Positions 6,865 to 27,153 of a stretch of DNA of 64,000 nt are shown piece by piece; within the stretch, counting starts at the first letter, position 1; each line of letters begins with the position of its first letter. The DNA lies in NCBI GenBank assembly GCA_041690135.1, contig JAWLHY010000010.1:256001-320000 (forward strand), given 5' to 3'. The notes under the pieces were generated by a model. That model saw only the letters and a list, made by a program, of their open reading frames with translations. It had not been told where the DNA came from and made no database searches. A program made the translations under genes and the position numbers. Source of the stretch: Armatimonadota bacterium (GTDB taxonomy: Bacteria > Armatimonadota > SYMT01).

Positions 6865-7794
6865 TCAAACCCCCGGTGCTACACCGACGCGCGGCAAGAG
6901 AGCATCCACGTCTTGTCGCCGGATCTCGGCCGTCCCTCGCGTGGTCACGATGGCGGCAGAGACGGCGATGGCGTGGCGCAAAGTCTCAGCTTCGTCCCAG
7001 CCGCGCGCCAATCCGAGGGCCAGGCACGCGGTCATCCCGTCTCCCGCCCCCGCAGGGTTGACCACGGGCACGTCCAGGCCCTCGGCCCGCCACACCCCGG
7101 CTCCGGAGACCAGTACCGCCCCTTCCGCTCCCAGGGACACGAGCACACGGTCAGCTCCCCGGTGTTGCAGCCGGCGGGCCGCGGCAACGATTTCTTCCCA
7201 AGAGTCCAACGGACCGGAAACCGACTCCAGTTCGTCCCGGTTCGGTTTGATGGCGGCCACGCCACATCCGACCGCTGCTTCAAGGGCCGGACCACTCGCG
7301 TCCACTACCACGGGCCGGCCACCGTTCCGGGCGGCGCTCACCAGTTGCGCGTATGCATCCGGCGGCCAGCTTTCCGGCAGGCTCCCGGCGATCACCACCA
7401 CCTCGGCCACACGCGCATAGCGCTCGATCCACTCCAGAAGACCGGGTAAGGTGTCGGCGGTGGGACGGAGACCTGCGGCGCAGACGGTGGTGTGTCCTCC
7501 GGTCTCCGTTTCGATCACCACCGTGTTGAAGCGTGTTTCGCCGGGGCACCAGACAAAGTCCGGCACCACGCCCGCACCGCGCAGGATCGCCTCCATCCGC
7601 CGACCGGTCTCCCCGGCGGCCACCCCGGTGGCGAACGTTTCCACCCCCAACTCCCGCAGGATGAGGGAGACATCGCACCCTTTGCCGCCCATCGAATCGA
7701 CCACGTCCGTCGCCTGGTTCCGGCGGTTGCGCTCGAACGAGGAGAGGAACAACACCCGGTCGAGACCCGTGTTGGGCGTCACCGTGAGGATCAC
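6865..7794 (-). CDS. 1-phosphofructokinase/tagatose-6-phosphate kinase-like PfkB sugar kinase
   Basis: ILTVTPNTGLD, GGKG, GETR, KPNRDEL, VSLGAEGA, GAGD. Confidence 0.9.
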   Translation of the reverse strand: MILTVTPNTGLDRVLFLSSFERNRRNQATDVVDSMGGKGCDVSLILRELGVETFATGVAAGETGRRMEAILRGAGVVPDFVWCPGETRFNTVVIETETGGHTTVCAAGLRPTADTLPGLLEWIERYARVAEVVVIAGSLPESWPPDAYAQLVSAARNGGRPVVVDASGPALEAAVGCGVAAIKPNRDELESVSGPLDSWEEIVAAARRLQHRGADRVLVSLGAEGAVLVSGAGVWRAEGLDVPVVNPAGAGDGMTACLALGLARGWDEAETLRHAIAVSAAIVTTRGTAEIRRQDVDALLPRVGVAPGV

Positions 7795-25408: not shown

Positions 25409-26488
25409 TCACGGCTTTCCTTCACGGCTTTCTTTAACAGCCAACTGGCCGCATGCGGCGTCGATATCCTGGCCCCGCTCCACTCGCTGCGTGGTCGAGA
25501 TCCCATAGCTCTCCAGCACGCTCCGGAAGGCCCGCACGCGCTCCCGGGACGGCGCCTCGAACTGCCCGAACGAGGCCGTTGGGTTCCACGGTATCAGATT
25601 CACGTGTGCGATCAACGGCCGATCCGGCCCCCGGACGAGGCGGGCAAGCTGGTGGGCGTGCTCCACTTCGTCGTTCACCCCGGAGAGGAGAAGATACTCC
25701 AGGGTGACCCGGCGTCCGGTTTTCTCCGTATAGCAGCGGACCGCCTCCATCACGTCTTTCACCCCCCACTTACGCGACATCGGAATCAGCTTCTCGCGGA
25801 GTTCGTCGTTAGGCGCGTGCAGGGAAAGGGCCAGGGTCACGGGGATCCCTTCTTCCGCCAGCTTCCGGATCCCCGGAACGTGTCCCGCCGTGGAGACGGT
25901 GAGGTGACGGTAGGAGAGCCCCACCTCTTCATGCAGGAGCCGGAGCGCGCGAACCAGGTTGTCGTAATTGATCATCGGCTCACCCATGCCCATGACTACA
26001 ACATGGGTGACGCGCCCTTCCGGAGCATTCTCGGCGGCGGTGAGGACCTGGTCCACGAACTCCCCCGGCGTGAGATTCCGACCGAAGCCCATGGTGGCCG
26101 TGGCGCAGAAGACACAGCCGACCGGGCACCCCACCTGGCTGGACACGCACACGGAGGTCCGGTCCTCGTACGGCAACATCACCGTTTCGATGCTCCGGTT
26201 ATCCGGGAGGGCCAGGAGCAACTTTTGTGTGCCGTCGCGGGAGGCCTGGCGCCGCGCCACCTCCGCCCGGCCGACCTGGAACCGCTCCGCAAGCCGCCGA
26301 CGGAAATCCGCCGGTAGATCCGTCATTTCGTCGAACGACCGGGCACCCTTGCGGTAGATCCAGGCGGCCAACTGCCGACCGCGATACCGGGGCTGGCCCA
26401 GCGATTCCACAACCGCCTCCAGTTCCGGCCGCGTTTTGCCCAGCAGAGGCTCCAGCGCCACCGGGGCCTCCAGTACCTGTAGTTCCAT
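25409..26488 (-). CDS. rlmN: 23S rRNA/tRNA m2A methyltransferase
   Basis: CVSSQVGCPVGCVFCAT, MGMGEP, SLHAP, EYLL, NLIPWN, DIDAACGQL; start at MELQV. Confidence 0.95.
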   Translation of the reverse strand: MELQVLEAPVALEPLLGKTRPELEAVVESLGQPRYRGRQLAAWIYRKGARSFDEMTDLPADFRRRLAERFQVGRAEVARRQASRDGTQKLLLALPDNRSIETVMLPYEDRTSVCVSSQVGCPVGCVFCATATMGFGRNLTPGEFVDQVLTAAENAPEGRVTHVVVMGMGEPMINYDNLVRALRLLHEEVGLSYRHLTVSTAGHVPGIRKLAEEGIPVTLALSLHAPNDELREKLIPMSRKWGVKDVMEAVRCYTEKTGRRVTLEYLLLSGVNDEVEHAHQLARLVRGPDRPLIAHVNLIPWNPTASFGQFEAPSRERVRAFRSVLESYGISTTQRVERGQDIDAACGQLAVKESREGKP

Positions 26489-26554
26489 CTCTCCCTCTCC
26501 CGTTGCCCACTCCGGTCTCGCCGCCATCGGCGGCTCCGCGCGGCCCGCCCGCCC

Positions 26555-26560
26555 ATTATA
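26555..26560 (-). promoter_or_regulatory. -10 element of rlmN promoter
   Basis: Perfect TATAAT on minus strand about 67 nt upstream of start. Confidence 0.55.
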
Positions 26561-26669
26561 GCGCGCCTGCCACCCGTACCCTCTTACCCAGCCATGCCTC
26601 ACCCGGCGCGGGCCTCTGTCTTGCCACTTTCTCGGTTCCGAAAGCCGGAAAAAAAGGCCGGCGCCGCGT

Positions 26670-26698
26670 TTGACGCCCCCACCGACCGCCGGTATCAT
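26670..26698 (+). promoter_or_regulatory. Sigma70-type promoter
   Basis: TTGACG-17 bp-TATCAT with A-tract upstream (26649-26655). Confidence 0.75.
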
Positions 26699-26704
26699 GA
26701 CTGT

Positions 26705-26835
26705 ATCAAAGGAGGTGATGACTTAATGGATCACAGTCGTCGAGGTGGCTGTAGGAGTTAACCACCTACTACCAGACTGGGGTGAACTCCTAAATCCAAC
26801 CAGTTCACCGGCGGGGGACCCTTCGGGGTCCCCCG
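26705..26835 (+). ncRNA. Candidate structured small RNA carrying an extended SD and 11-aa micro-ORF (26726-26761, MDHSRRGGCRS)
   Basis: Own promoter, AAAGGAGGTGAT, two hairpins with complementary loops, terminal 10-bp C(UUCG)G hairpin. Confidence 0.6.
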
Positions 26836-26949: not shown

Positions 26950-27153
26950 ATGAGCATGGGATCGCCCATCAACCCGTCTGAACCGGAGTCCGAAGAGGAC
27001 GAGTACGAAGAAATCAATATCGACGTCACGGAAGAAGGCGAGGTGTGGGTCCACGGGGAGGATTGGGAACTGAAGTTCAGCCCCGAAGAGGCCCGCCAGT
27101 TGGGGCAGGCCCTGCTGGACGCCGCGGACGACGCGGAGAACCCCACCGAGTAA
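26950..27153 (+). CDS. Small acidic hypothetical protein
   Basis: SD GGGAGGT; 67 aa; genome-like codon use. Confidence 0.75.
   Translation: MSMGSPINPSEPESEEDEYEEINIDVTEEGEVWVHGEDWELKFSPEEARQLGQALLDAADDAENPTE

Follow-up and report, generated by a model that had tools for sequence, protein, structure and literature searches.

The 64,000-nucleotide (nt) stretch analyzed here, referred to as the window, comes from contig JAWLHY010000010.1 (positions 256,001 to 320,000) of an Armatimonadota bacterium and contains a predicted small RNA gene of about 135 nt on the + strand, single-copy in its 9.1-Mb genome. On sequence grounds, this element is very probably a divergent member of the superfamily of Ms_IGR-5 (Rfam RF02471), a small RNA (sRNA) already known from Actinobacteria. 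What its homologues appear to have kept is the translation of a very short open reading frame (ORF) through an invariant RNA word; the encoded peptide is not conserved. The parts of the element to which we refer throughout are as follows.

26670..26698, + strand: sigma-70-type promoter, TTGACG (26670-75), 17-nt spacer and TATCAT (26693-98), 10/12 matches.
26708..26719, + strand: extended Shine-Dalgarno (SD) sequence AAAGGAGGTGAT, 12 nt, at the transcript 5′ end; found by sequence inspection, with GGAGGTG invariant in alignment A1.
26717..26741, + strand: hairpin P0, GATGACT (26717-23) with AGTCGTC (26735-41), start codon in the loop; constrained fold and pair counts.
26726..26761, + strand: micro-ORF, ATG at 26726, 10 further codons and TAA (26759-61), encoding MDHSRRGGCRS; sequence and conserved frame.
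26741..26751, + strand: invariant internal SD-like motif CGAGGTGGCTG; invariant columns in A1, common to the Actinomycetota, Bryobacterales, Planctomycetota and Sumerlaeota copies.
26744..26809, + strand: helix P1, GGTGGCTG (26744-51) with 26801-09, that is, GGUGRCUG with CAG(N)YCACC; consensus fold.
26753..26791, + strand: helix P2, AGGAGTT (26753-59, overlapping the stop codon) with AACTCCT (26785-91), interior variable; pair counts.
26781..26788, + strand: third GGTG copy GGTGAACT, able to pair locally with AGTTCACC (26802-09); lineage-specific, seen by eye in only some homologues.
26792..26800, + strand: unpaired joiner AAATCCAAC between P2 and P1, family consensus AAUCC[A/C]A; alignments and the Rfam consensus AAUuCC.
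26801..26809, + strand: anti-SD-like 3′ strand CAGTTCACC, which can pair with 26744-51 (P1, SD free) or with GGTGA at 26714-18 (SD masked); folds and pair counts.
26812..26835, + strand: terminal hairpin CGGGGGACCC-TTCG-GGGTCCCCCG, 10-bp stem and UUCG loop; sequence and fold.

A probable divergent relative of Ms_IGR-5

We assign the element to the Ms_IGR-5 superfamily because of a chain of intermediates and a shared architecture, not because of an Rfam threshold. Searched against Rfam at gathering score (45 bits for RF02471), the window gave 0 matches. When RF02471 was run on seven Armatimonadota elements, five scored below threshold (35.5, 33.9, 31.5, 29.6 and 26.4 bits; E 1.7e-4 to 0.04), and the window element and L024 gave no match. 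These five intermediates (L034, L035, L013, L019 and L043) are found at 34-69 bits by R1, a covariance model that we built from 13 Armatimonadota pattern-scan sequences with a nested structure and that scores the window at 84.7 bits. At the other end of the chain, RF02471 calls the Streptomyces and Thermomonospora copies at gathering score with 68-98 bits. Streptomyces loci align to R1 over its full length at 25-42 bits, and RF02471 matches those same loci, which had been chosen by a pattern sharing the 5′ motifs.

The architectures correspond block by block. The Rfam consensus blocks (AAGGAgGugGuCc, GAGGUGgCug, AAUuCC, cAGuCACC and the terminator) are the same as those of the family. The window element and Ms_IGR-5 both present, in the same order, a promoter, a 5′-terminal AAGGAGGUGRU, a start-codon hairpin, CGAGGUGRCUG and a short ORF, followed by a variable stem, an AAUCC joiner, CAGUCACC and a terminator. 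The differences lie in size, frame and host. RF02471 describes an Actinobacteria sRNA of 184 positions and 140-215 nt, whereas the window RNA is about 135 nt long with a short P2. The window ORF has 11 codons in the CGA-GGU-GGC frame, whereas that of Ms_IGR-5 has 12 codons in the GAG-GUG-GCU frame and mostly a UUG start. Finally, the window host belongs to the Armatimonadota, whereas the Ms_IGR-5 family is listed as actinobacterial.

Some of the model searches count against this placement. Even at E <= 10, RF02471 has no match between 26550 and 27000 of the window, where the only hit is a chance small nucleolar RNA match (E 9), and on the element's own genome its best score is 12 bits, at other loci, with nothing at the element. 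In whole-genome searches of five genomes outside the phylum, R1 performed marginally (per-genome E 0.0014 to 0.54); three of the five best matches are known elements, by identical bit score. At gathering score, Rfam also found nothing at the tested Bryobacteraceae, Planctomycetota, Sumerlaeota and class-2 Armatimonadota loci.

Ms_IGR-5 is said to have been described originally by Li et al. (RNA 19:74). The literature that we searched on Ms_IGR-5/RF02471 contained neither a function for the family nor any mention of it outside Actinobacteria, and a search for the mycobacterial homologue under the names ncRv0812/ncRv0813 returned nothing. A possible link to the Streptomyces sRNA scr4389 was dropped: the papers give the name only, and cmscan of the Streptomyces loci reports RF02471 alone. 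An earlier note on this DNA, made from the sequence alone, had called the unit an undescribed system that matched no RNA class. The window is indeed unmatched in Rfam, but its intermediates and Streptomyces relatives match RF02471, so that the family has a name; what stands of the claim is that its function is undescribed in the literature searched. The S. avermitilis homologue is reported as a stand-alone sRNA transcription unit (PMC8780764), the S. lividans homologue has been validated by RNA sequencing (PMC8079986) and ribosome footprints have been found on the Ms_IGR-5 homologues of M. abscessus and M. smegmatis (PMC4974804).

Distribution across phyla

A BLAST search found the element in 9 of 41 related genomes, its own included. 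The first pattern scan, over 185,579 species genomes, returned 14 loci, 10 of them labelled Armatimonad-; two labelled 'uncultured bacterium' and one labelled 'Actinomycetes' all fall in the window's own family. The last (L018 / L028, contig JANPLG010000582.1) carries the public label 'Actinomycetes bacterium' but is placed in the window's Armatimonadota family, and that label is probably wrong. A Coraliomargarita locus from the same scan was rejected by the covariance model. R1 detected a single copy in each of 24 Armatimonadota genomes out of 151, the window's included (15 of 134 among high-quality genomes), a phylum count that is a lower bound with the stricter filters on. The blocks of the homologues follow one order: promoter, AAGGAGGTG, short hairpin, AGTCGAGGTGRCTGY, variable stem, AAUCCA, CAG(N)YCACC and a GC hairpin.

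A looser pattern (SD, ATG, 12-15 nt, CGAGGTGRC) gave at least 120 loci, some of which are chance matches inside genes. The matches listed carry, among others, the labels Streptomyces and numerous further Actinomycetes, Bryobacterales, Pirellulales, Planctomycetales and Sumerlaeota, together with a second Armatimonadota class that includes Chthonomonas calidirosea. The elements of this second class are shorter and have an ORF of the MIDSQRGDRAG type (L045, L082 and 12 more loci among the matches listed). Judged by these sequence matches, the element spans at least five phylum labels.

A predicted independent transcription unit

We conclude that the small-RNA unit, with its own promoter, very strong ribosome-binding site and 11-codon ORF, is real and, by prediction, independently transcribed. 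A promoter scan of 1 kb returned a single site, the TTGACG/TATCAT pair, compared with 0.2 expected, and a TTGAC-17-TAnnnT promoter lies upstream of every aligned homologue, ending 7-12 nt before the conserved 5′ block. Transcription is predicted to start at about 26704-26707, which would leave the SD only a few nucleotides from the RNA 5′ end. The extended SD is complementary to the 16S ribosomal RNA (rRNA) tail over up to 12 nt, as counted on the canonical tail word GGATCACCTCCTT, which is present in two of six same-family genomes searched; a 16S rRNA gene was not found in the element's own assembly, which has 25 contigs and is 97% complete. Folding of the + strand gave -59.1 kcal/mol (z = -3.47); none of 200 shuffles folded as well, and the reverse strand folds less well. 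The terminal hairpin was not called by a simple terminator scan. The T-tract that follows it in the window is weak (TATTGCTGT), and most homologues have T-runs there. The promoter TTGACG-17-TATCAT, the 12-nt SD, the ATG-TAA ORF of 11 codons and the 10-bp UUCG hairpin at 26812-35 all lie where the earlier note had placed them.

A conserved short ORF with an unconserved peptide

The 25 unique Armatimonadota elements used to examine the ORF were defined by the covariance model alone. The ORF frame is open in all 25, and the other two frames contain a stop in 12 and 24 of them. An ATG lies exactly 15 nt before CGAGG in 20 elements and a TTG in two more (together 22/25), and the stops (TAG in 12, TGA in 8, TAA in 5) fall past GAGGUG by 11 nt in 22 elements and by 8 nt in 3. 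The window conforms to this spacing: its ATG-to-CGAGG distance is 15 nt, as in other copies, and AGTCGTCGA is no in-frame 3-nt insertion. For the Actinomycetota we used the 116 unique elements among the matches listed, obtained with a search pattern that had no start or stop condition. The ORF is present in 115 of these, with 12 codons in 114 and 13 in one; it starts with UUG (99), AUG (12) or GUG (4), and in all 115 the stop is exactly 9 nt past GAGGUG. In L050, from an actinomycete, CUG occupies the start position, which is UUG in the related L084. In both samples, start, open frame and stop are conserved beyond chance. Across clades the ORF measures 10-13 codons, runs through GAGGUGRC and stops 8-11 nt beyond it.

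The frame in which this word is read differs between phyla. It is CGA-GGU-GRC (..RG[G/D]..) in Armatimonadota and Planctomycetota, and GAG-GUG-GCU (..EV[A/T]..) in Actinomycetota, Bryobacterales and Sumerlaeota. We found no sign of selection on the amino-acid sequence: two frames overlie invariant nucleotides, and the CGA and GGU codons have zero synonymous variation in the Armatimonadota alignments. Because the same invariant GAGGUGRC is read in two frames, we take translation to be selected and the peptide not. The trait that is conserved, as far as alignments reveal it, is translation through the invariant word to a stop 8-11 nt beyond. Comparing peptide with nucleotide conservation, as the earlier note had proposed, thus finds the word constant and the peptide not, and its suggestion of a functional micropeptide is not supported by an ORF that different phyla read differently.

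A conserved fold

The consensus fold is nested, with P2 inside P1 and P0 on the 5′ side. Over 25 distinct Armatimonadota sequences, 87.9% of cells pair, compared with 83.2% in shuffles (0/500 as high); nine pairs changed on both sides, which 1/500 shuffles reached, and slid controls stayed at or below 52%. In the multi-phylum set of 77 sequences, which contains one spurious 16-bit row, 81.1% of cells pair, compared with 71.6% in shuffles and at most 55% in slid controls. This set has 112 cells changed on both sides, compared with 48.7, and a covariation of 0.218, compared with 0.118 (0/500 shuffles). P0 is 85.4% paired in the 25 Armatimonadota sequences, with three of four pairs changing on both sides, and corresponds to the GATGACT/AGTCGTC pairing that had been proposed over the start codon. 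P2 is 85.8% paired in the 77 sequences, where five of five pairs have changes on both sides, and it is supported in the Armatimonadota set too.

Other structural proposals of the earlier note had to be redrawn. Complementary segments do lie at 26753-59 and 26785-91, and the competing pairing of 26781-88 with 26802-09 is present as well. The 8-nt complementarity that it had read as kissing loops is, however, the ordinary nested and covarying helix P2. Its hairpins 1 and 2, both of which lie partly in unaligned insert columns, are 56.6% paired, with a covariation of 0.064 compared with 0.062 in shuffles (168/500 as high), so they do not appear conserved. What is borne out across homologues is a self-contained unit with a conserved micro-ORF and mutually exclusive helices. 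The idea of a ribosome-engaging, translation-coupled RNA is plausible, without the kissing-loop geometry.

An alternative helix that masks the SD

The YCACC 3′ strand of P1 has a second possible partner. Both RNAalifold and the single-sequence minimum-energy fold pair the GGUGA of the 5′ SD with this same UCACC strand; the resulting helix is formable in 95.9% of cells and, sharing the strand with P1, is mutually exclusive with it. Constrained folding of 76 sequences gave a median difference of 0.15 kcal/mol between the two states, with P1 better in 36 and the masked form better in 38. In the window, the fold with a free SD comes to -31.4 kcal/mol and the fold with a masked SD to -32.9 kcal/mol.

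We also folded four copies from other clades (L154, L045, L048 and L066) as single sequences. In L154 (Planctomycetales, 6999-7108), the two SD-like words pair with separate anti-SD-like strands, so that the SD is masked at minimum energy; the outer of these strands, GGAUCACC, reads exactly as the 16S 3′ tail word does. By eye, L114 contains these words too. A masked SD is likewise predicted at minimum energy in L045, from the second Armatimonadota class, where ACCACCUU is used, and in L048 from the Bryobacterales. In L066 (Planctomycetota), for which the folded stretch ends at CAGCCACC, the 5′ SD-like word is unpaired. Taken together, these folding models make masking of the SD by an anti-SD mimic look like a family trait, not a single-sequence quirk.

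A model for a translation-gated mini-mRNA

We tentatively favor a reading in which the element, as the Armatimonadota version of a widespread sRNA, acts as a self-masking, translation-gated mini-messenger RNA (mini-mRNA), with selection on the RNA and on the act of translation. We find this plausible, with the doubts slightly outweighing the support. In this model, a 30S subunit would capture the 5′-terminal extended SD when it is free, and the translating ribosome would melt P0, P1 and P2. With the stop codon in the A site, the internal GAGGUG would lie 5-8 nt upstream of the P site. Because this spacing matches that between an SD and a start codon, GAGGUG could base-pair to the anti-SD and detain the ribosome as it terminates, which would permit repeated rounds on the very short ORF. 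The released YCACC strand could then switch to the 5′ SD and so shut the RNA, giving a two-state device set by ribosome traffic. Its output might be to titrate or meter ribosomes, or to expose the AAUCC joiner and the anti-SD-like strand to a partner. In vitro, ribosomes are reported to translate very short ORFs many times over without being released, with about 30 rounds for an 11-codon template (PMC6495379).

Several observations weigh against this model. Three of the 25 Armatimonadota elements (L034, L035 and L019) have no ATG, GTG or TTG; all they have in frame at that place is an AUU, 8 nt past the SD. The stop is lost in one Sumerlaeota copy (L116, where UUG replaces UAG) and the start in one Actinomycetota copy (L235). 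Covariation does not separate P1 from the masking helix because both 5′ strands read GGUGR, and for the same reason the near-equal fold energies are partly built in. The alignments used for the pair counts were fitted to the model, which favors the model. In this organism, the element's existence as a discrete RNA is predicted from sequence. A metatranscriptome contig of 180 nt covers 26663-26771 with one mismatch and then diverges upstream; it includes promoter DNA, so it gives no transcript ends and may derive from DNA or from a relative. Two other sequencing runs yielded nothing that aligned here. The paper on mycobacterial footprints also notes footprints on classical non-coding RNAs (PMC4974804). 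Finally, the holding of ribosomes, the strand flipping and the downstream output are model steps that we infer.

A bolder version would make the element a pan-phylum 'ribosome meter', in which the 5′ SD, a second SD-like word gripping the terminating ribosome and a re-closing anti-SD mimic would hold or count ribosomes. We regard this extension as rather unlikely. If true, it would be an RNA-only device, found from Actinomycetota to Armatimonadota and Planctomycetota, that reports or buffers translation capacity.

Genome neighborhoods

The divergent neighbor of the element is rlmN, as the earlier note had said; we identified its Radical_SAM and RlmN_N domains. The listed 429-amino-acid ORF for this gene (25409-26698, - strand) is over-extended: RlmN_N begins at residue 85, and by eye the likely start is an ATG near 26492. 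This gene adjoins the element in the window and in L022, and lies about 2 kb downstream in L014 and L017. On the other side, 115 nt away, is a very acidic ORF of 67 amino acids (26950-27153, + strand) with its own GGGAGG ribosome-binding site and no match in Pfam or NCBIfam. Homologues of this ORF lie just 3′ of the element in two other same-family loci, L018 and L020. On the minus strand, a terminator-like hairpin with a T-run (26677-26660) overlaps the -35 box of the sRNA promoter and, judging from its sequence, might end an antisense transcript running through the element.

Elements of the second Armatimonadota class sit about 450 nt upstream of greA, which is followed by a class II (Lys-type) transfer RNA (tRNA) synthetase gene identified with Pfam, in 14 loci among the matches listed. 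A Mycolicibacterium copy has a pabC-like gene and a nitrobindin-like gene as neighbors. Neighbors are conserved within clades only (rlmN or the 67-amino-acid ORF in the window's family, greA and the tRNA synthetase in the second class); downstream genes differ among clades and are often convergent.

Alternative explanations

The element could instead be a trans-acting base-pairing sRNA, whose anti-SD-like strand (YCACC, or CCUCC in some copies), AAUCC joiner, or both, pair with the ribosome-binding sites of target mRNAs. The SD-like words would then be internal decoys, and the micro-ORF would merely tune stability or access. An independent unit with a terminator and a neighborhood that is unconserved between clades suits such a role, as do a conserved, single-stranded joiner and an anti-SD-like strand in every clade examined. 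However, some short members, L041 and L044 among them, lack the joiner, and a base-pairing sRNA has no need for an ORF kept, with a fixed stop distance, in 115/116 actinomycetotal elements among the matches listed and in 22/25 from the Armatimonadota. We consider this explanation unlikely.

We give little credence to a second possibility, that the helices between SD and anti-SD-like strands mimic the duplex of mRNA with the 16S 3′ tail, or the tail itself, and so act as a decoy for a factor that recognizes the small subunit. Both 5′ words read GAGGUGR, and the strand on the 3′ side is UCACC, ACCACCUU or GGAUCACC, of which GGAUCACC equals the 16S tail word; conservation across phyla would also fit a universal partner. 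Such a decoy leaves the conserved start, open frame and stop unexplained, however, and synteny links no candidate protein to the element.

Just as doubtful is a micropeptide gene whose 11-residue product, MxxxSRG[G/D]Cxx, would be the functional molecule. The strong SD, the ATG in 20/25 Armatimonadota elements and the conserved length of 10-13 codons are what such a gene would show, and the C-terminal residues are similar within a clade. Against this, the other frame turns the same nucleotides into ..EV[A/T]xx in Actinomycetota, Bryobacterales and Sumerlaeota, residues 2-5 vary freely, CGA and GGU lack synonymous variation in the Armatimonadota alignments, and no modifying or export gene is linked.

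We can all but dismiss a cis-acting leader, that is, a ribosome-dependent attenuator or riboswitch controlling a downstream gene (here the ORF at 26950-27153): a leader-peptide-like ORF does precede a hairpin, the weak T-tract of the window would permit read-through, the 67-amino-acid ORF follows the element in three loci and the second class lies upstream of greA in 14 loci among the matches listed, but by inspection the 5′ half of the terminal stem has no upstream complement and this stem forms by itself in the predicted fold, the genes downstream vary from clade to clade and frequently run convergently, with synteny within clades only, and the actinobacterial homologue is reported as a stand-alone sRNA unit (PMC8780764). 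The attenuator form of this explanation was rejected, there being no antiterminator and no conserved downstream genes.

Comparison with known systems

The translation-gated mini-mRNA that we favor shares parts with several known systems. RNA thermometers and translational riboswitches mask an SD with an anti-SD-like strand, which an alternative helix removes to free it. These platforms control a downstream protein gene, whereas the only ORF of the window element has 11 codons and the transcript ends about 75 nt later. In Gram-positive mRNAs, STAB-SD stabilizers are perfect SD sequences near the 5′ end that bind the small subunit and have no start codon; in prfB and dnaX, an internal SD-like word at a set distance upstream of the decisive codon is used for frameshifting. 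By analogy, the element would combine the perfect 5′ SD of the former with the spaced SD-like word of the latter. Dual-function sRNAs (SgrS/SgrT, RNAIII/hld and SR1/SR1P) contain a translated short ORF whose peptide is conserved and functional. The element resembles them in carrying a short ORF, but its frame differs between phyla. Finally, mccA, the 7-codon mini-gene for the microcin C precursor, likewise combines a strong SD, a very short ORF and a terminator behind it, an arrangement that yields an abundant mini-mRNA (PMC6495379). There the peptide itself is the product, and the linked mccB serves to process it, whereas the window element has no linked enzyme and its peptide is unconserved across frames.

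Significance

The kind of RNA described here was known already, as the actinobacterial sRNA of Rfam RF02471. As far as our literature searches show, what is new is an Armatimonadota form that the Rfam model misses, a range of at least five phylum labels, an ORF in two frames and the putative logic of an SD and its anti-SD mimic. Such depth of conservation is unusual for a bacterial sRNA. The retention of an ORF in two different frames across one set of invariant nucleotides suggests that translating the RNA has a role in itself. If our reading is true, it would give Rfam a reason to widen RF02471, and the family would offer a simple, testable model of how an RNA senses or holds ribosomes.

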